Origin: Escherichia phage HZP2 | Reading direction: 5' to 3' (one strand) | Sequence record: NC_048164.1 | Length of the DNA: 32,448 bases | Shown: piece after piece, positions 608 to 32,448 of the stretch | Layout: every line of letters starts with the position of its first letter | How positions within the stretch are numbered: position 1 is the first letter of the stretch | Notes under the pieces: model-generated | Database searches by the model: none | What the model was told of the DNA's origin: nothing | What the model saw: the letters and a program-made list of their open reading frames with translations, nothing else | Made by a program: the position numbers and the translations under genes

Positions 608-811
608 ATGTTATCTTTTGACTTCAACAACGAGGTCGTTAAGGCTGCACCGATTATTGGTACAGGGGTCGCTGACGGGGCGGCCCGACTATTTTGGGGG
701 CTATCGTTAAACGAATGGTTCTACGTTGCTGCTATCGCCTACACAGTGGTTCAGATTGGTGCCAAGGTAGTCGATAAGATGATTGACTGGAAGAAAGCCA
801 ATAAGGAGTGA
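608..811 (+). CDS. 17.5: type II holin (T7 gp17.5 homolog)
   Basis: 67 aa, MLSFDFNNEVVKAAPIIGTGVADGAARLFWGLSLNEWFYVAAIAYTVVQIGAKVVDKMIDWKKANKE, near-identical to T7 gp17.5; RBS TAAGGAGGT upstream. Confidence 0.93.
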   Translation: MLSFDFNNEVVKAAPIIGTGVADGAARLFWGLSLNEWFYVAAIAYTVVQIGAKVVDKMIDWKKANKE

Positions 812-816
812 TGAAT

Positions 817-1086
817 ATGGAAAAAGATAAGAGCCTTATCACGTTCTTAGAGATGTTGGACACTGCGATGGCACAGCGTATGCTTGCTGACCTTTCTGAC
901 CCTGAGCGGCGTTCTCCACAACTCTATAACGCCATCAACAAACTGTTAGACCGTCATAAGTTCCAGATTGGTAAGTTGCAACCTGATGAGCACATCTTGG
1001 GTGGCCTCGCCGGTGCTCTGGATGAGTACAAGTCTAAAGTTGGATACGATGGTCTCACTGATGACGACATTTACACTTTGCAGTGA
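817..1086 (+). CDS. 18: terminase small subunit (T7 gp18 homolog)
   Basis: 89 aa starting MEKDKSLITFLEMLDTAMAQRMLADLSD..., matching T7 gp18. The ORF-track start at 808 is a GTG extension; the ATG at 817 matches the T7 N-terminus. Confidence 0.92.
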   Translation: MEKDKSLITFLEMLDTAMAQRMLADLSDPERRSPQLYNAINKLLDRHKFQIGKLQPDEHILGGLAGALDEYKSKVGYDGLTDDDIYTLQ

Positions 1087-1130
1087 TATACTCAAGGTCT
1101 CCTACGGGTGGCCTTTATGAATGTCATTGG
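1086..1130 (+). promoter_or_regulatory. RNase III processing site (R18.5-like stem-loop)
   Basis: Motif ..ATACTCAAGGTCTCCTACGGGTGGCCTTTATGAATGTC.. is the conserved T7 RNase III site architecture (ACTCAAGGTC ... GGCCTTTATGA). Confidence 0.6.
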
Positions 1131-1145
1131 CATTTAGGAGGTACT

Positions 1146-1586
1146 ATGAGTCTATTCAATAAGTTGTTACCTTGGGTTCTAGCTGGGATGCTATTCGGAT
1201 GGGGATGGCACCTTGGGGCAGACTCAATGGACGCCAAGTGGAAACAGGAGGTACAGAATGAGTACGTTAAGAGAGTTGAGGCTACAGCGAGCACTCAAAG
1301 AGCACTCAATGAAATATCGGCTAAGTATCAAGAAGACCTTGCCGCGTTGGAAGGGAGCACTGATAGGATTATTTCTGATTTGCGTAGCGACAATAAGCGG
1401 CTGCTCGTCAGAGTCAAAACTACCGGAACCTCCGATGGTAAGTGTAGATTCGAGCCTGATGGTCGAGCCGAACTTGACGACCGAGATGCTAAACGTATTA
1501 TCGCAGTGACCCAGAAGGGTGACGCGTGGATTCGTGCGTTACAGGATACTATTCGTGAACTACAACGTAAGCAGGAAACCGAGTAA
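1146..1586 (+). CDS. 18.5: Rz-like i-spanin (T7 gp18.5 homolog)
   Basis: MSLFNKLLPWVLAGMLFGWGWHLGADSMDAKWKQEV... matches T7 gp18.5; start chosen at the ATG at 1146 with GGAGG RBS rather than the ORF-track GTG at 1083. Confidence 0.9.
   Translation: MSLFNKLLPWVLAGMLFGWGWHLGADSMDAKWKQEVQNEYVKRVEATASTQRALNEISAKYQEDLAALEGSTDRIISDLRSDNKRLLVRVKTTGTSDGKCRFEPDGRAELDDRDAKRIIAVTQKGDAWIRALQDTIRELQRKQETE
1258..1509 (+). CDS. 18.7: Rz1-like o-spanin lipoprotein (T7 gp18.7 homolog), embedded out of frame in 18.5
   Basis: MSTLRELRLQRALKEHSMKYRLSIKKTLPRWKGALIGLFLICVATISGCSSESKLPEPP... with lipobox (ISGC) and Pro-rich tail; embedded position typical of Rz1. Confidence 0.85.
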   Translation: MSTLRELRLQRALKEHSMKYRLSIKKTLPRWKGALIGLFLICVATISGCSSESKLPEPPMVSVDSSLMVEPNLTTEMLNVLSQ

Positions 1587-1595
1587 GGAGGTAAT

Positions 1596-3356
1596 GTGTC
1601 TACTCAGTCCAATCGTAATGCGCTCGTTGTGGCGCAACTAAAGGGTGACTTCGTGGCGTTCCTGTTCGTCTTATGGAAGGCGTTAAACCTACCAGTGCCA
1701 ACTAAGTGTCAAATCGACATGGCTAAGGTGCTGGCGAATGGAGACAACAAGAAGTTCATCCTACAGGCTTTCCGTGGTATCGGTAAGTCATTCATCACAT
1801 GTGCGTTCGTTGTGTGGTCCTTATGGAGGGACCCTCAGTTGAAGATACTTATCGTATCAGCTTCTAAAGAACGTGCAGACGCTAACTCCATATTCATCAA
1901 GAACATCATTGACCTGCTGCCGTTTCTCAGTGAGTTGAAGCCGAGACCCGGACAGCGTGACTCTGTGATTAGTTTTGATGTTGGCCCCGCTAGTCCTGAC
2001 CACTCGCCTAGTGTGAAATCAGTAGGTATCACTGGTCAGTTAACAGGTAGTCGTGCTGATATTATCATTGCGGATGACGTTGAGATTCCGTCTAACAGTG
2101 CTACTATGGGTGCCCGTGAGAAGCTATGGACTCTCGTTCAGGAGTTCGCTGCGTTACTTAAACCACTACCTACGTCTCGTGTTATCTACCTTGGTACCCC
2201 TCAGACTGAGATGACTCTCTATAAGGAACTTGAGGATAACCGTGGGTACACAACCATTATCTGGCCTGCTCTGTATCCAAGGACACACGAAGAGAACCTC
2301 TATTACTCACAGCGTCTTGCTCCTATGCTACGTGCTGAGTACGATGAGAACCCTGAGGCACTCGCTGGGACTCCTACAGACCCTGTTCGGTTCGACCGAG
2401 ACGACCTGCGTGAGCGTGAGTTGGAATACGGTAAGGCTGGCTTTACGCTACAGTTCATGCTTAACCCGAACCTGAGTGACGCTGAGAAGTACCCTCTGAG
2501 GCTCCGTGACGCTATCGTAGCGGTCTTAGACTTAGAGAAGGCACCGATGCATTACCAGTGGCTTCCGAACCGTCAGAACATCATTGAGGACCTTCCTAAC
2601 GTGGGCCTTAAGGGTGACGACCTACATACATACCATGAGTGCTCGAATAACTCTGGTCAGTATCAACAGAAGATTCTGGTCATTGACCCAAGTGGTCGTG
2701 GTAAGGACGAAACAGGTTACGCTGTGCTGTACACCCTCAACGGTTACATCTACCTAATGGAAGCTGGTGGTTTCCGTGACGGTTACTCCGATAAGACCCT
2801 TGAGTTGCTCGCTAAGAAAGCCAAGCAATGGGGAGTCCAGACGGTTGTCTACGAGAGTAACTTCGGTGATGGTATGTTTGGTAAGGTATTCAGTCCTATC
2901 CTTCTTAAACACCACAACTGCGCGATGGAGGAGATTCGTGCTCGTGGTATGAAGGAGATTCGTATTTGTGATACCCTTGAGCCAGTCATGCAGACTCACC
3001 GCCTTATCATTCGCGATGAGGTCATTAGGGCCGACTACCAGTCAGCTCGTGACGTAGACGGTAAACATGACGTTAAGTATTCACTATTCTACCAGATGAC
3101 CCGTATCACCCGTGAGAAAGGTGCTCTGGCTCATGATGACCGATTGGATGCCCTTGCGTTAGGCGTTGAGTATCTCCGTGAGTCCATGCAGTTGGATTCC
3201 GTTAAGGTCGAAGGTGAAGTGCTTGCTGACTTCCTTGAGGAACACATGATGCGTCCTACAGTTTCTGCTACCCACATCATTGAGATGTCTGTAGGAGGAG
3301 TTGATGTGTACTCTGAGGACGATGAGGGATACGGTACGTCTTTCATTGAGTGGTGA
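1596..3356 (+). CDS. 19: terminase large subunit / DNA maturase B (T7 gp19 homolog)
   Basis: 586 aa, near-identical to T7 gp19 ([24 protein letters not shown]...TSFIEW). GTG start at 1596 directly after GGAGG; T7 gene 19 also appears to start with GTG. Confidence 0.95.
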
Positions 3357-3393: not shown

Positions 3394-3837
3394 ATGATAA
3401 GCAAGAAGAAGTATGTTATCGATAAGGAGACTGGTTGCTGGAACTTTAGGGGATGTAAGACGAAGACTGGTTATGGTCGCATTCGTGTGAACGGAGTCCA
3501 TTGGATGGCCCACAGGTATTCCCTGAGTTGTCATCTAGGCAGACCGATAGCTGACGGAATGGTTGTGATGCACCTATGTGATAATCCTTCATGTGTTAAC
3601 CCTGAGCACCTTAAGGAAGGGACTCAGAAGGAGAACATAGAGGACTGCATCTCAAAAGGTCGTGCAACTAAGTCCACAGGTAAACGTGATGCAACTAAGA
3701 GAGACCCTAGCGAGGAACGTAAGGCTATAGTGATTCGAAGATACCATAAAGGCTGGACCGCAACGTCCATAGCGAGATACCATAAGCTCTCTGTGGCGTG
3801 GGTAAAGAGGGTCATTGAGGATTACCTAAGTGATTGA
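3394..3837 (+). CDS. free-standing HNH homing endonuclease (HNH motif plus C-terminal helix-turn-helix)
   Basis: 147 aa; GCWNF..GYGRIRVNG..HR....VVMHLCDNPSCVNPEHL is an HNH_3-type motif, same architecture as T7 gp7.7/gp5.3. Strong RBS TAAGGAGGT 7 nt upstream. T7 has no gene at this position. Confidence 0.85.
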   Translation: MISKKKYVIDKETGCWNFRGCKTKTGYGRIRVNGVHWMAHRYSLSCHLGRPIADGMVVMHLCDNPSCVNPEHLKEGTQKENIEDCISKGRATKSTGKRDATKRDPSEERKAIVIRRYHKGWTATSIARYHKLSVAWVKRVIEDYLSD

Positions 3838-3888: not shown

Positions 3889-3911
3889 TAATTCGACTCA
3901 CTATAGGGAGA
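3889..3911 (+). promoter_or_regulatory. T7 RNAP promoter (phiOR-like, right-end replication promoter)
   Basis: TAATTCGACTCACTATAGGGAGA, 21/23 match to the T7 class III consensus; positioned upstream of gene 19.5 as phiOR is in T7. Confidence 0.8.
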
Positions 3912-4747: not shown

Positions 4748-4770
4748 TAATTCGACTCACTATAGGGAGA
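4748..4770 (+). promoter_or_regulatory. T7 RNAP promoter (phiOL-like, left-end)
   Basis: TAATTCGACTCACTATAGGGAGA, identical 23-mer to the phiOR-like promoter at 3889-3911; located just upstream of the host-promoter array like T7 phiOL. Confidence 0.8.
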
Positions 4771-13846: not shown

Positions 13847-13869
13847 TAATTGAACTCACTATAGGGAGA
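13847..13869 (+). promoter_or_regulatory. T7 RNAP promoter (phi3.8-like)
   Basis: TAATTGAACTCACTATAGGGAGA. Confidence 0.8.
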
Positions 13870-13905: not shown

Positions 13906-16066
<2,161 letters not shown>

Positions 16067-17113: not shown

Positions 17114-19072
17114 ATGATCGTTTCTGACATCGAAGCTAACGCCCTCTTAGAGAGCGTCACTAAGTTCCACTGCGGGGTTATCTACGACTACTCCACCGCT
17201 GAGTACGTAAGCTACCGTCCGAGTGACTTCGGTGCGTATCTGGATGCGCTGGAAGCCGAGGTTGCACGAGGCGGTCTTATTGTGTTCCACAACGGTCACA
17301 AGTATGACGTTCCAGCATTGACCAAACTGGCTAAGTTACAGCTTAACCGTGAGTTCCACCTACCCCGTGAGAACTGTATTGACACACTTGTGTTGTCACG
17401 CTTGATTCACTCAAACCTGAAAGACACCGATATGGGTCTTCTGCGTTCCGGTAAACTTCCGGGTAAACGCTTTGGGTCTCACGCTTTGGAGGCGTGGGGC
17501 TATCGCTTAGGTGAAATGAAGGGTGAATACAAAGATGACTTTAAGCGTATGCTTGAAGAACAAGGTGAAGAATACGTTGACGGCATGGAGTGGTGGAACT
17601 TCAACGAAGAGATGATGGCCTATAACGTTCAGGACGTTGTGGTCACTAAGGCTCTCCTTGAGAAGCTACTCTCTGACAAACATTACTTCCCTCCTGAGAT
17701 TGACTTTACGGACGTAGGCTACTCTACGTTCTGGTCAGAATCCCTTGAGGCCGTTGATGTTGAACATCGTGCTGCGTGGCTACTCGCTAAGCAAGAGCGA
17801 AATGGATTCCCATTTGACACGAAAGCAATCGAAGAGTTGTACGTAGAGTTGGCTGCCCGCCGCTCTGAGTTGCTCCGCAAATTGACCGAAACGTTCGGCT
17901 CGTGGTATCAGCCTAAGGGTGGCACAGAAATGTTCTGCCATCCGAGGACTGGTAAGCCATTACCTAAATATCCTCGCATTAAGACACCTAAAGTTGGTGG
18001 TATCTTTAAGAAGCCTAAGAACAAGGCACAGCGAGAGGGCCGTGAGCCTTGTGAACTGGATACCCGTGAATACGTTGCTGGTGCTCCATATACTCCTGTA
18101 GAGCACGTAGTGTTTAACCCTTCGTCCCGTGACCACATTCAGAAGAAACTTCAAGAGGCTGGATGGGTCCCCACGAAGTACACCGATAAGGGTGCGCCTG
18201 TGGTGGACGATGAGGTACTCGAAGGAGTACGTGTAGATGACCCTGAGAAGCAAGCCGCTATCGACCTTATTAAAGAATACCTGATGATTCAGAAGAGAAT
18301 CGGTCAGTCTGCTGAGGGAGACAAGGCATGGCTTCGTTACGTTGCTGAGGATGGTAAAATTCATGGTTCTGTTAACCCTAATGGAGCAGTTACGGGTCGT
18401 GCTACCCATGCGTTCCCAAACCTTGCGCAAATTCCGGGTGTACGTTCTCCTTATGGTGAGCAGTGCCGCGCTGCTTTTGGCGCTGAACATCACTTAGATG
18501 GACTTACAGGTAAGCCTTGGGTTCAGGCTGGTATAGACGCCTCCGGTCTGGAGTTACGTTGCTTGGCCCACTTTATGGCTCGCTTTGATAACGGTGAGTA
18601 CGCTCACGAGATTCTTAATGGTGACATTCACACTAAGAATCAGATAGCTGCCGAATTGCCTACCCGTGATAACGCCAAGACGTTCATCTATGGGTTCCTT
18701 TATGGTGCTGGTGATGAGAAGATTGGGCAGATTGTTGGTGCTGGCAAAGAACGCGGTAAGGAACTCAAGAAGAAATTCCTTGAGAACACTCCAGCGATTG
18801 CTGCACTCCGAGAGTCTATCCAACAGACACTCGTTGAGTCATCTCAGTGGGTAGCTGGTGAACAGCAAGTCAAGTGGAAACGCCGCTGGATTAAAGGACT
18901 TGATGGGCGCAAAGTCCATGTCCGTAGTCCTCATGCTGCCCTGAACACCTTGCTGCAATCTGCTGGTGCTCTTATCTGCAAACTGTGGATTATCAAGACC
19001 GAAGAGATGCTCTTAGAGAAAGGCTTGAAGCATGGCTGGGATGGGGACTTTGCGTACATGGCATGGGTGCAT
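17114..19072 (+). CDS. 5: DNA polymerase (T7 gp5 homolog), exon 1 (residues 1-653)
   Basis: [36 protein letters not shown]... near-identical to T7 gp5 up to ..[13 protein letters not shown]. The frame then runs into non-homologous KLSHCAH-stop, while the missing 51 C-terminal residues of gp5 are encoded at 19674-19829. Confidence 0.95.
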
Positions 19073-19673
19073 AAACTATCTCATTGTGCACATTAAATCT
19101 GGTGAACTCGGTGAAACCCTTCTAGGGCAATACCGAGCCAAGCCATAGGGAGGATATATGAGAGGCAAGAAGTTAATCCTTGCGACCACAGAGAGTGGTT
19201 GTATCATCCCTACGTCACACAAACTTAATACTGATGGTTATTTCCGAAAGAAGACGAACGGTGTCCTAGAGATGTATCACAGGACAGTCTGGAAGGAACA
19301 CTACGGAGATATACCAGAAGGGTATGAAGTAGACCACAAGTGTAGGAACAGGGCGTGCTGTAACGTAGAGCACCTCCAGTTATTAGAAGGTTCTGAGCAT
19401 ACAGTCAAGACAAACAGGGAACGATACGCTGACCGTAAAGAGTCCGCGAAGGAACACTGGTTGGAGACTGGATGTACAGGAACACACTTAGGTGAGAAGT
19501 TTGGTGTAACGTTCTCTGCCGCTTGTAAGTGGATTAGAGAGTGGAAGGCGTAGAGACTATCCGAAAGGAGTAGGGCCGAGGGTGAGATTCCCTCGTTACC
19601 CGAAGCGCCAGACAGTCAACTCAAAGGCTGATGATATAGTCCGACACTCCTAGCAATAGGAGAATACAGAAAG
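19073..19673 (+). mobile_element. group I self-splicing intron (601 nt) interrupting DNA polymerase gene 5
   Basis: Exon 1 ends in U (..GUGCAU) and an internal guide-like GTGCAC at 19086-19091 can pair with it with a terminal U.G wobble (P1). P7-like pairing GACTAT (19555-19560) / ATAGTC (19636-19641) with a GAAA tetraloop hairpin between. Intron ends in G (..CAGAAAG) directly before exon 2 GATGAGATT. Joining 19072 to 19674 restores the exact T7 gp5 sequence WVH/DEIQVGC. Confidence 0.85.
19158..19553 (+). CDS. intron-encoded HNH homing endonuclease
   Basis: 131 aa; EGYEVDHKCRNRACCNVEHLQL (HNH motif) with C-terminal helix-turn-helix-like segment; GGGAGG RBS; in a different frame from gene 5; stop TAG lies just before the P7 element. 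Confidence 0.85.
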   Translation: MRGKKLILATTESGCIIPTSHKLNTDGYFRKKTNGVLEMYHRTVWKEHYGDIPEGYEVDHKCRNRACCNVEHLQLLEGSEHTVKTNRERYADRKESAKEHWLETGCTGTHLGEKFGVTFSAACKWIREWKA

Positions 19674-19829
19674 GATGAGATTCAGGTAGGTTGTCGTACC
19701 GAAGAGATTGCTCAGGTGGTCATTGAGACTGCACAGGAAGCGATGCGCTGGGTAGGAGACCACTGGAACTTCCGGTGTCTTCTGGATACCGAAGGTAAGA
19801 TGGGTCCTAATTGGGCTGTATGTCACTAA
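19674..19829 (+). CDS. 5: DNA polymerase (T7 gp5 homolog), exon 2 (C-terminal 51 residues)
   Basis: DEIQVGCRTEEIAQVVIETAQEAMRWVGDHWNFRCLLDTEGKMGPNWAVCH-stop, equals the T7 gp5 C-terminus; no start codon of its own (hence absent from the ORF track). Exon 1 plus exon 2 = 704 aa, the length of T7 gp5. Confidence 0.9.
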   Translation, partial: DEIQVGCRTEEIAQVVIETAQEAMRWVGDHWNFRCLLDTEGKMGPNWAVCH

Positions 19830-19848
19830 TTCTATAGGAGAAATTATT

Positions 19849-20148
19849 ATGGCTATGACCAAGAAATTTAAAGTGTCCTTCGACGTTACCGCTAAGATGA
19901 CATCTGACGTTCAGGCAATCTTAGAGAAAGATATGCTGCACCTGTGTAAGCAGGTTGGCTCCGGTGCTATTGTTCCTAACGGCAAGCAGAAAGAGATGAT
20001 TGTTCAGTTCCTGACTCATGGTATGGAAGGGGTGATGACCTTCATTGTTCGCACAACATTCCGTGAGGCTATCAAGGAAATGAACGAAGAGTATGTCGAT
20101 AAGGACTCCTTCAAGTTATCTCCTACCACTGTACGGGAGGTGTTCTAA
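19849..20148 (+). CDS. 5.5: gp5.5 homolog (H-NS-binding protein in T7)
   Basis: 99 aa MAMTKKFKVSFDVTAKMTSDVQAILEKDMLHLCKQVGSG..., matches T7 gp5.5. Confidence 0.9.
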   Translation: MAMTKKFKVSFDVTAKMTSDVQAILEKDMLHLCKQVGSGAIVPNGKQKEMIVQFLTHGMEGVMTFIVRTTFREAIKEMNEEYVDKDSFKLSPTTVREVF

Positions 20149-29935: not shown

Positions 29936-30352
29936 ATGATGATTATAAGACCTACTAAAAGTACAGACTTTGAGGTATTCACTCCGGCTCACCATGACAT
30001 TCTTGAAGCTAAGGCTGCTGGTATTGAGCCGAGTTTCCCAGATGCTTCCGAGTGTGTCACGTTGAGCCTCTATGGGTTCCCTCTAGCCATTGGTGGTAAT
30101 TGCGGGGACCAATGCTGGTTCGTAACGAGCGACCAAGTGTGGAGACTTAGTGGAAAAGCTAAGCGAGAGTTCCGTAAGTTAATCATGGAGTATCGCGATA
30201 AGATGCTTGAGAAGTATGATACTCTTTGGAATTACGTGTGGGTAGGCAATACGTCTCACATTCGTTTCCTCAAGACTATCGGTGCGGTATTCCACGAAGA
30301 GTATACACGAGATGGTCAATTTCAATTATTCACAATAACGAAAGGAGGGTGA
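29936..30352 (+). CDS. 13: internal virion protein A (T7 gp13 homolog)
   Basis: 138 aa MMIIRPTKSTDFEVFTPAHHDILEAKAAGIEPSFPDASECVTLSLYGFPLAIGGNCGDQCWFVTSDQVWRLSGKAKR..., matches T7 gp13. Confidence 0.93.
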   Translation: MMIIRPTKSTDFEVFTPAHHDILEAKAAGIEPSFPDASECVTLSLYGFPLAIGGNCGDQCWFVTSDQVWRLSGKAKREFRKLIMEYRDKMLEKYDTLWNYVWVGNTSHIRFLKTIGAVFHEEYTRDGQFQLFTITKGG

Positions 30353-30354
30353 TT

Positions 30355-30933
30355 ATGTGTTGGCCTGCCGCAATTCCAATTGCATTAGCTGGCGCTCAGG
30401 CTGTAGGTAGTCAGTACGCTCAAGCTAAAATGATAGCCTCACAGACAGCCGCTGGTCGTCGTCAAGCCTTTGAACTTATGAAGCAGACGAACATCCAGAA
30501 TGCTGACCTATCGTTGCAAGCTCGAAGTAAACTTGAGGAAGCGTCCGCTGAGTTGACCTCACAGAACATGCAGAAGGTTCAAGCTATGGGGTCTATCCGA
30601 GCAGCTATCGGAGAGAGTATGCTTGAAGGTTCCTCAATGGACCGCATTAAGCGAGTAACTGAAGGACAGTTCATTCGGGAAGCCAATATGGTAACTGAGA
30701 ACTATCGCCGTGACTACCAAGCAATCTTCGCACAGCAACTTGGTGGTACTCAAAGTGCTGCAAGCCAGATTAGCGAAATCTATAAGGGCGAACAGAAACA
30801 GAAGAGTAAGCTACAGATGGTTCTTGACCCGCTGGTGGTCATGGGGTCAGCTGCTGCTAGTGCTTATGCAGACGGTAAGTTCGACTCTAAGGAACCTATT
30901 GTTGCCGCTAAAGGTACTAAGACTGGGAGGTAA
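30355..30933 (+). CDS. 14: internal virion / ejection protein B (T7 gp14 homolog)
   Basis: 192 aa from the ATG at 30355 (MCWPAAIPIALAGAQAVGSQYAQAKMIASQTAAGRRQAFELMKQ...), GGAGGG RBS; ORF-track start 30226 is an extension overlapping gene 13. Confidence 0.93.
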   Translation: MCWPAAIPIALAGAQAVGSQYAQAKMIASQTAAGRRQAFELMKQTNIQNADLSLQARSKLEEASAELTSQNMQKVQAMGSIRAAIGESMLEGSSMDRIKRVTEGQFIREANMVTENYRRDYQAIFAQQLGGTQSAASQISEIYKGEQKQKSKLQMVLDPLVVMGSAAASAYADGKFDSKEPIVAAKGTKTGR

Positions 30934-30939
30934 TACATT

Positions 30940-32448
30940 ATGAGTAAAATTGAATCTGCCCTTCAAGCAGCACAACCGGGACTCTCTCGGTTACGTAGTG
31001 GCGCTGGTGGTATGGGCTATCGTGCAGCAACCACTCAGGCTGAACAGCCAAGGTCAAGCCTATTGGATACCATTGGTCGATTCGCTAAGGCCGGAGCCGA
31101 CATGTATGCTGCTAAGGAGCAACGTGCTCGTGACCTAGCTGACGAACGCTCTAATGAGATTATCCGTAAGTTGACTCCTGAGGAACGCAGAGAGGCACTG
31201 AATAACGGGTCCCTCCTGATACAGGATGACCCATACGCTATGGAAGCACTTAAAGTCAAGACTGGTCGTAACGCCGCATATCTGCTTGATGATGACGTCA
31301 TGCAGAAGATCAGAGCGGGTGTCTTCACTACTCGCGAAGAGATGGAACAGTATCGCCATAGTCGTCTTCAAGAGGGCGCTAAGGCATACGCTGAGCAGTT
31401 CGGTATCGACCCTAATGACGTTGACTATCAGCGTGGTTTCAACGAGGACATCACTGAGCGTAACATCGCACTGTATGGTGCTCACGATAGCATCTTGAGT
31501 CAACAAGCTCAGAAGGGTGCCTTGATTAACAGTAGGGTTGAACTTAACAGCGTCCTTAAAGACCCTGACATGCTTCGCCGTCCAGACTCTGCGGACTTCT
31601 TTGAGAGCTATATCTCAAACGGACTAGTTACTGGGTCGATACCAAGTGACGCTCAGGCTACACAGTTAATCAGCCAAGCGTTTAGTGACGCATCTAATCG
31701 TGCTGGTGGTGCTGACTTCTTGATGCGTGTTGGCGACAAGAAGGTAACACTCTACGGAGCCACTACGACCTATAAGGAACTCATGGGTGAGGAGCAGTGG
31801 AATGCCCTTATGGTGACAGCACAGAGAGCACAATATGACAACGATGCAAAACTGAACGAGAAGTTTCAGCTTGACGTTAACTCTGCGTTGCTTATGGATG
31901 ACCCTAGAGTTGGCTGGGAGAAGCTCCTTGGAATCAAGGCCGAGTTAGATAAGAACCAGCCGGGAGAACAAATGACACCACAGCGAGCTACTTTAATAGC
32001 TGCGCAGGAGCAACTTCGGGCTAAGATGGTTGAGTGGACTAAGAATGAGGCAAAAGCTCTTGACGAGGCTCAAAAGGCCGATAATAAGTTCAAGGTAATA
32101 GACGCTCAATACCAGAAACGCATTAACGGTGAGTGGGTATCTACAGACTTTAAGGACATGCCCACTAACGAAAATACTGGTGAGTTCAAACATAGCGATA
32201 TGGTGAACTACGCTAACAAAAAGCTGGCTGACATCGACGCTATGGACATCCCAGATGGAGCAAAGGATAGGCTTAAACTTCAATACTTGCAGTCAGACTC
32301 TAAGGATGGGCCATTCAGGACTGCAATAGGAACGATGGTTCAGGACGCAGCTCAGGAGTGGTCTTCTTCTGTGATGAACGGTAAGTTAGCAGATAAGACT
32401 CCAGCGATGGATGCCTTACGCAGAATCCGTAACGCAGACCCATACCTA
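30940..32448 (+). CDS. 15: internal virion / ejection protein C (T7 gp15 homolog), 3'-truncated by the window end
   Basis: Open frame from the ATG at 30940 to the window end (503 codons): MSKIESALQAAQPGLSRLRSGAGGMGYRAATTQAEQPRSSLLDTIGRFAKAGADMY... matches the T7 gp15 N-terminal two thirds. Absent from the ORF track because it has no stop inside the window. Confidence 0.95.
   Translation, partial: MSKIESALQAAQPGLSRLRSGAGGMGYRAATTQAEQPRSSLLDTIGRFAKAGADMYAAKEQRARDLADERSNEIIRKLTPEERREALNNGSLLIQDDPYAMEALKVKTGRNAAYLLDDDVMQKIRAGVFTTREEMEQYRHSRLQEGAKAYAEQFGIDPNDVDYQRGFNEDITERNIALYGAHDSILSQQAQKGALINSRVELNSVLKDPDMLRRPDSADFFESYISNGLVTGSIPSDAQATQLISQAFSDASNRAGGADFLMRVGDKKVTLYGATTTYKELMGEEQWNALMVTAQRAQYDNDAKLNEKFQLDVNSALLMDDPRVGWEKLLGIKAELDKNQPGEQMTPQRATLIAAQEQLRAKMVEWTKNEAKALDEAQKADNKFKVIDAQYQKRINGEWVSTDFKDMPTNENTGEFKHSDMVNYANKKLADIDAMDIPDGAKDRLKLQYLQSDSKDGPFRTAIGTMVQDAAQEWSSSVMNGKLADKTPAMDALRRIRNADPYL

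Follow-up and report, generated by a model that had tools for sequence, protein, structure and literature searches.

Gene 5 of Escherichia phage HZP2, which encodes the T7-type DNA polymerase, is interrupted at positions 19073-19673 by a stretch of DNA that is, with high confidence, a mobile group I intron of subgroup IA2 placed between the codons for His653 and Asp654. This element is the ΦI/W31-type gene 5 intron that has already been described, and it is common in T7 relatives; known since 2004 and widespread in this way, it is an ordinary element. The window, i.e., the whole stretch of DNA analyzed, is the sequence record NC_048164.1 (32,448 nt). Within it, the interrupted gene is made up of the following parts:

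17114..19072, plus strand: exon 1 of gene 5 (DNA polymerase), 653 codons, ending in ..AYMAWVH; its last base is U19072
19073..19673, plus strand: group I intron, subgroup IA2, 601 nt, based on the RF00028 match, covariation and the published length of the ΦI/W31 introns (PMC1995217)
19148..19153, plus strand: Shine-Dalgarno-like GGAGGA, 4 nt ahead of the start codon of the intron open reading frame (ORF) and kept in relatives
19158..19553, plus strand: HNH homing endonuclease ORF, a homologue of I-TslI, 131 aa, with matches to HNH_3 and phrog_6254 and 85% identity to I-TslI
19674..19829, plus strand: exon 2 of gene 5, 51 codons (DEIQVGC..NWAVCH) followed by the stop codon

The interruption is visible in the translations. 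The ORF of the T7-type polymerase runs from 17114 to 19096, and after ..AYMAWVH it continues with KLSHCAH and a stop codon. The rest of the protein is encoded downstream, where the translation of 19674-19829 is DEIQVGCRTEEIAQVVIETAQEAMRWVGDHWNFRCLLDTEGKMGPNWAVCH, again followed by a stop. When 19072 is joined to 19674 in silico, a gene of 2115 nt encoding 704 amino acids is obtained, and its product aligns with the T7 gp5 chains 6n7w/2ajq over residues 1-704 without any gap (1652 bits). T7 itself has no gene 5 intron: in its genome (NC_001604), the 60-nt flanks found upstream and downstream of the HZP2 insert directly adjoin each other, with nothing between them. The predicted spliced junction of HZP2 is ..GGGTGCAT/GATGAGATT.., where the slash marks the junction, and the intron-less gene of T7 reads GGGTACAT/GATGAAATCC at the same site. 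This junction was placed by ungapped matching; a global MAFFT alignment against the intron-less alleles put the 601-nt gap at the wrong position. With regard to the protein, the insertion point falls in the HDE of motif C. T7 DNA polymerase has two catalytic aspartates, of which Asp654 is one. These results bear out the reading given in the initial annotation, namely that the polymerase frame is lost after 19072, that the last 51 residues of gp5 are encoded 601 nt downstream with no start codon of their own, that a 704-aa polymerase is rebuilt by joining the two pieces, and that T7 is free of the insert.

How, then, is the polymerase produced from such a gene? One answer would be that the interruption is dealt with at the level of translation or of the protein, through an intein, ribosomal bypassing or a frameshift, and not by RNA splicing; nothing specific speaks in favor of this, and its probability is close to nil. 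The insert is out of frame, a stop codon is reached seven codons past the junction, and its length of 601 nt cannot be divided by three. No intein motifs are present, and HNH_3 is the only domain that Pfam finds. The longest known translational bypass, that of T4 gene 60, covers 50 nt, so that a bypass of 601 nt would exceed it more than 10-fold.

Another answer would be that a selfish insertion has split the gene permanently, and that the polymerase consists of two associating polypeptides. There is a precedent for such “genes in pieces” in a phage ribonucleotide reductase gene split by a homing endonuclease gene, and separate polymerase CDSs are annotated in several GenBank records, e.g., AH67C600_Q5, DT115P1 and PT2; these split annotations, however, come from automatic pipelines. 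In HZP2, the frame of exon 2 contains no ATG, GTG or TTG ahead of the GTG at 19716, and two in-frame TGA codons stand just upstream of the exon, at 19629 and 19632. Exon 2 therefore has no usable start codon, and the C-terminal piece, including the catalytic Asp654, is not translatable on its own. A further point is that the interruption has a ribozyme fold supported by covariation, as detailed below, for which a plain insertion would have no need. We consider a polymerase in two pieces highly improbable, and the interpretation that accounts for the sequence is an intron that is removed from the RNA.

The structural elements of this intron, read in the 5' to 3' direction, are the following:

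19067..19091, plus strand: P1, formed between UUGUGCAC (19084-19091) and the stretch 19067-19074, which consists of exon GUGCAU and intron AA; from the sequence and minimum free energy (MFE) folding
19080..19084, plus strand: P10 guide CUCAU, which pairs with exon 2 AUGAG (19675-19679); from the sequence
19098..19104, plus strand: 5' strand of P3, UCUGGUG, which pairs with CGCCAGA at 19606-19612; 100% paired, with changes on both sides in five of seven pairs
19108..19136, plus strand: P4 (19108-13 with 19131-36) enclosing P5 (19117-20 with 19124-27); from covariation and MFE folding
19137-39, plus strand: 5' strand of P6, which pairs with 19547-49; C:G becomes U:A in ECBP2 and Vp_R1
19143-45, plus strand: 5' strand of P6a, which pairs with 19542-44 and whose loop holds the ORF
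19555..19560, plus strand: 5' strand of P7, GACUAU, which pairs with AUAGUC at 19636-19641; 100% paired, with two pairs swapped in Arash
19561..19601, plus strand: P7.1 (CC-GAAA-GG, 19561-68), GUA linker (19570-72) and P7.2 (19573-19601); from covariation and MFE folding
19613..19630, plus strand: P8 hairpin, with changes on both sides in four of five pairs
19647..19662, plus strand: P9, a hairpin capped by a GCAA tetraloop; six of its six pairs are changed on both sides

P1 consists of 8 bp and has the wobble U19072·G19086 at the 5' splice site; exon 1 therefore ends in U. The GUGCAC guide occupies 19086-19091 and starts at the 14th base of the intron, and the terminal G (omega G) is G19673, at the 3' splice site. 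P7 crosses P3 and forms a pseudoknot, J4/5 and J5/4 are A-rich, and P2 is absent from the structure as read from the HZP2 sequence and its relatives. Thus, the hallmarks listed in the initial annotation (exon ending in U, GTGCAC from the 14th base, the GACTAT/ATAGTC pairing and the terminal G) are all found where it had put them. As for the subgroup, IA2 introns are recognized by P7.1 and P7.2 being linked by G-U-A (PMC3428280), and the HZP2 intron has P7.1, the GUA and P7.2, with the two helices paired in the relatives as well. No T7 promoter was found within the intron or just upstream of it when up to three mismatches were allowed. GGGAGGA at 19147-53 was considered as a promoter and rejected, being the ribosome-binding site of the intron ORF.

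The fold can be tested on other phages. A query of 205 nt, corresponding to the intron without its ORF, matched 59 phage records, among which 39 hold at least 80% of the ribozyme. The covariation set contains 13 introns, their cores aligned and 51 pairs counted: that of HZP2 and those of 12 relatives, i.e., 13a, Bas102, K1F, CHRF_10037, Aeromonas PT2, Klebsiella RCIP0053 and RCIP0099, Edwardsiella DT115P1, ECBP2, Vibrio Vp_R1, Salmonella Arash and Rhizobium RHph_N3_13. In these 13 introns, standard pairs fill 96.7% of the cells of the named structure versus 38-43% when the 3' partners are slid by 1-3 columns, a percentage in which the named structure is favored over the slid controls by having been derived from the HZP2 sequence itself. 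Changes on both sides of a pair are seen in 30 of the 51 pairs, against 5-10 in the slid controls, and they are most numerous in P3, P8 and P9; since these compensatory changes sit in the other sequences, they are free of the bias just mentioned. The covariation score is 0.424, the mean of the shuffled alignments is 0.160, and none of 500 shuffles reached the value observed. When the ORF-deleted intron is folded by MFE, P1, P4, P5, P7.1, P7.2, P8 and P9 are obtained independently (z = -2.6).

The two helices that include exon bases vary together with the exons. In ECBP2 and Vp_R1, the P1 pairing is formed by exon AUGCAU and guide GUGCAU, so that the exon change from G to A is matched by a change from C to U in the guide. 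Similarly, the P10 pairing CUCAU/AUGAG of HZP2 is replaced by guide UUCAU and exon AUGAA in Bas102, PT2 (AhaPT2) and ECBP2, a C:G pair giving way to U:A. Compared with T7, HZP2 has the synonymous changes GTA>GTG at -3 and GAA>GAG at +6, each of which adds one pair to P1 or P10.

The Rfam covariance-model search, which had been proposed as a check on the initial annotation, gave a divided answer. A scan of the whole 32,448-nt sequence at the gathering scores found nothing. In E-value mode, RF00028 matches 19063-19663 over the full model (positions 1-253) with 35.3 bits and E = 3.5e-7; the default scan is empty because this match falls under the RF00028 gathering score of 50 bits. The low score is probably the cost of the ∼400-nt ORF insertion, given that the ORF-less relatives all exceed the gathering score (Rhizobium, 83.6 bits; RCIP0099, 70.6 bits; Arash, 58.9 bits) and the ORF-bearing ones, at 27-45 bits, all remain under it. 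In the HZP2 match, cmscan puts the ORF insertion slightly wrong. Other weak Rfam matches in the region, to gyrA RNA (E = 9.9) and archaeal RNase P (E = 0.43), were set aside as chance. The group I identity proposed at the outset is consequently backed by covariation, by MFE folding and by a full-length model match.

The arrangement is far from being confined to HZP2. The flanking exons match 368 phage records, and the whole arrangement is found in 23 of them; furthermore, the HZP2 region is 96-99% identical to that of about a dozen independently sequenced viable phages. The intron was not found in 5,426 complete E. coli genomes and is thus not prophage-borne there.

These data also bear on the idea that the HZP2 copy is inactive or decayed, or an assembly artefact, with gene 5 being a pseudogene in a defective or misassembled genome. 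The assembly does look incomplete, as gp15, gp16 and gp17 are missing (PMC7598189), and a copy that appears decayed occurs in Citrobacter phage NS1. On the other side, all the helices of the HZP2 intron are intact, its ORF is full-length with the HNH motif, and the region is 96-99% identical to that of the viable phages just cited. A defective copy is, in our judgment, very unlikely, and an intact mobile intron is the interpretation retained here.

The NS1 copy deserves a short description of its own. It lies at 395-1003 of MN715150. Its P7 is broken by a G>C change (AUACUC), its P7.1 is broken as well, and P6 contains an insertion; the 5' exon is disrupted, and no polymerase exon follows the terminal G. 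Either the intron is decaying, or this stretch, close to where the record starts, was poorly assembled.

The ORF sits between the two strands of P6a, i.e., in the P6a loop, and its frame differs from that of exon 1; a 131-aa HNH ORF in another frame had indeed been pointed out initially. The catalytic motif is that of the HNH (His-Me finger) enzymes: the HNH_3 domain of Pfam covers residues 40-82 with 61.3 bits (cut-off 24.8; E = 6.6e-17), PHROG assigns the protein to phrog_6254, “HNH endonuclease” (3.9e-46), and there is a weak helix-turn-helix match at residues 105-129. The protein was compared with I-TslI of phage ΦI (AAV53690.1): the two are 85% identical over all 131 residues and fall in the same 90% cluster. 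The last 12 nt of the ORF, comprising the ..Trp-Lys-Ala codons and the UAG stop, extend over the 3' strands of both P6a and P6, which agrees with the invariant ..WIREWK[A/V/Q] ending of the protein in all relatives. A sequence search against PDB chains returned nothing at E <= 1, I-HmuI included. T7 gp5.3 was considered as a relative of the ORF product and rejected (E = 9.1).

The comparison with known systems starts from the gene 5 intron that was reported in 2004 for phages ΦI and W31 (Bonocora & Shub, as cited in a passage of PMC3428280). In the table of PMC1995217, the DNA polymerase introns of both phages are listed with 601 nt and a 131-aa HNH ORF, I-TslI; the entries on them in PMC3428280 give subgroup IA2, Pol I site 881 and an ORF in P6a, and the same source cites Bonocora and Shub (2004) for their guanosine-dependent self-splicing. 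I-TslI is counted among the intron-encoded homing nicking enzymes (PMC8845596). The HZP2 intron resides in the same host gene and at the same site, E. coli Pol I position 881, where it separates the His codon of motif C from the Asp codon, and resembles these introns in its 601 nt, its 131-aa ORF in P6a, its IA2 subgroup and the absence of P2. It differs in that it comes from another phage isolate and that its endonuclease diverges by 15% in amino acids from I-TslI. ΦI and W31 (AY769989 and AY769990) were compared through their published properties and the I-TslI protein, with phage 13a taken as the nucleotide surrogate. The kinship with the ΦI/W31 introns, pointed to in the initial annotation, is therefore well founded.

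Further copies are found at the same site in 13a (EU734174), K1F (DQ111067) and Bas102 (PQ850620), whose ribozymes are 98.6%, 91% and 95.7% identical to that of HZP2, respectively. In all three, gene 5 is annotated as a join of two pieces with an internal endonuclease CDS. K1F differs in belonging to another genus (Kayfunavirus), in its diverged exons and in the length of its intron, 598 nt.

Phage T3 offers a different situation: its gene 5 is uninterrupted, and gene 5.3, directly downstream, is a free-standing HNH gene and not part of an intron. The 5.3 product is 48% identical to the HZP2 intron ORF over residues 6-94 (E = 2e-31), and it lacks the C-terminal ∼35 residues, which in HZP2 overlap P6a/P6 and include the weak helix-turn-helix match. 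The T3 5.3 endonuclease is reportedly called F-TslI by Bonocora and Shub (2009). The term “collaborative homing” is cited in a passage of PMC10448857. At the corresponding place, HZP2 has no counterpart of T7 gene 5.3: gp5 stops at 19829 and gp5.5 starts 20 nt farther on (19829-19849), where T3 has its HNH gene.

More distant parallels are the introns of SPO1, SP82 and Bastille (I-HmuI, I-HmuII and I-BasI) and of cyanophage Pf-WMP3 (I-PfoP3I), in which, as in HZP2, a group I intron with an HNH homing (nicking) endonuclease occupies the gene of a family A polymerase. Here the insertion is at Pol I position 674, whereas it is at 881 in HZP2. The Pf-WMP3 intron is also of subgroup IA2 with its ORF in P6a (PMC3428280), and the ORF of the SPO1 intron is in P8 (PMC3073962).

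Has the intron moved? The comparison of HZP2 with the Kayfunavirus-like BUCT788 is instructive in this respect. In windows of 50 nt, the introns are 94-100% identical and the exons only 40-70%, and the high identity reaches ∼40 nt into each exon. Such a pattern indicates lateral transfer and is what homing with co-conversion should leave behind.

The insertion site itself comes in two forms. HZ2R8 (MG832642), an intron-less sister described together with HZP2 in one study (PMC7598189), has a gene 5 that is 97.1% identical to that of HZP2, and its exon 2 is identical for about 140 nt. Within 30 nt of the junction, just two positions distinguish them, -3 and the final base of the exon, HZ2R8 having GTACAC/GAT and HZP2 GTGCAT/GAT. 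T3 and Pipis, both of which carry a free-standing HNH homologue, read CAC/GA at this site like HZ2R8, versus CAT/GA, the site of T3 being ATACAC/GACGAA. Judging from these alleles, CAC/GA may be a cleavage-resistant form of the site, and HZP2 and HZ2R8 could make up a natural pair of donor and resistant recipient for homing of the I-TslI type.

With these elements, a mechanism can be proposed. Gene 5 would be transcribed as a single pre-mRNA, whose intron would fold into P1-P10. An external guanosine would attack after U19072, at the U·G wobble of P1, and the freed exon would then attack after G19673, aligned by P10, to give the mRNA of the normal 704-aa polymerase. The ORF in the P6a loop, with its own ribosome-binding site, would encode an HNH endonuclease of the I-TslI type, which is expected to cut or nick polymerase alleles that lack the intron when related phages infect the same cell. 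With the intron-bearing copy as the repair template, the intron would then be transferred along with a few tens of bases of the flanking exons. Self-splicing and endonuclease activity are ascribed to HZP2 by analogy with the family and with the published work on ΦI and W31.

The practical value of these findings lies in annotation, because many related records mis-split gene 5: the polymerase appears there in truncated form, together with a “hypothetical protein” and a second, very small polymerase CDS. The intron is not mentioned in the HZP2 paper (PMC7598189). The right annotation of HZP2 gene 5 is join(17114..19072,19674..19829), with an intron feature and a CDS for the I-TslI-like endonuclease. 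In addition, the element adds one more homing intron to those known in a catalytic motif of an essential phage gene, and it can be used to trace recent genetic exchange between T7-like phages; it opens no new question.

Two of the ORF-less relatives reside at other sites. In Salmonella phage Arash (OQ632216), a 271-nt relative at 1338-1608 (RF00028, 58.9 bits) interrupts motif B (..AKSVTF/GLLYGA..) of the family A polymerase of a jumbo phage. The annotation divides this polymerase into two proteins, “polymerase nu” and “polymerase theta”, and splicing in silico restores one ORF of 518 aa. A GGAGG ribosome-binding site, an ATG and a remnant of 16 codons are still present in the P6a loop (L6a) of the Arash intron, which suggests that this loop once held an endonuclease gene and lost it. 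In Rhizobium phage RHph_N3_13 (MN988507), a ribonucleotide reductase gene is annotated as two halves. A related group I intron at about 1426-1675 (RF00028, 83.6 bits) follows the N-terminal one, and a separate ORF, annotated as an Srd-like sigma-factor decoy, lies between the two. A tentative view, which we hold with some reserve, is that this intron lineage has moved between target sites and host genes, cycling through the gain and loss of endonuclease genes.

HZP2 has two other HNH ORFs, both on the plus strand. The first, at 3394-3837, is free-standing, encodes 147 aa and directly follows the large terminase gene; it also belongs to phrog_6254 and is 40% identical to the intron-encoded enzyme over the N-terminal 80 residues. 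It may represent a second homing endonuclease, with the terminase as its neighbor or its target. The other, at 13906-14394 (162 aa; phrog_99, E = 5e-54), is situated shortly before the primase/helicase gene, with a T7-promoter-like site ahead of it at 13847-13869.

As for the genome as a whole, the HZP2 sequence (1-32448) is a circularly permuted T7-like genome that begins with the terminase, continues with the early genes as far as gp14 and then returns to the genes for tail-fibre assembly, terminase and spanin, with landmarks at 30226-30933 (a gp14-like ORF), 30934-32448, 194-598 and 808-3356. The internal core and tail fibre proteins gp15, gp16 and gp17 are absent from these 32,448 nt, and missing proteins were remarked on in the HZP2 paper (PMC7598189). 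The record, 32.4 kb in length versus about 39-40 kb in relatives, is probably incomplete or misjoined. Two identical T7-promoter-like sites (TAATTCGACTCACTATAGGGAGA) occur at 3889-3911 and 4748-4770, 859 nt apart and downstream of the terminase and HNH genes; if the assembly is permuted, this is where the genome ends and the terminal repeat would be expected.
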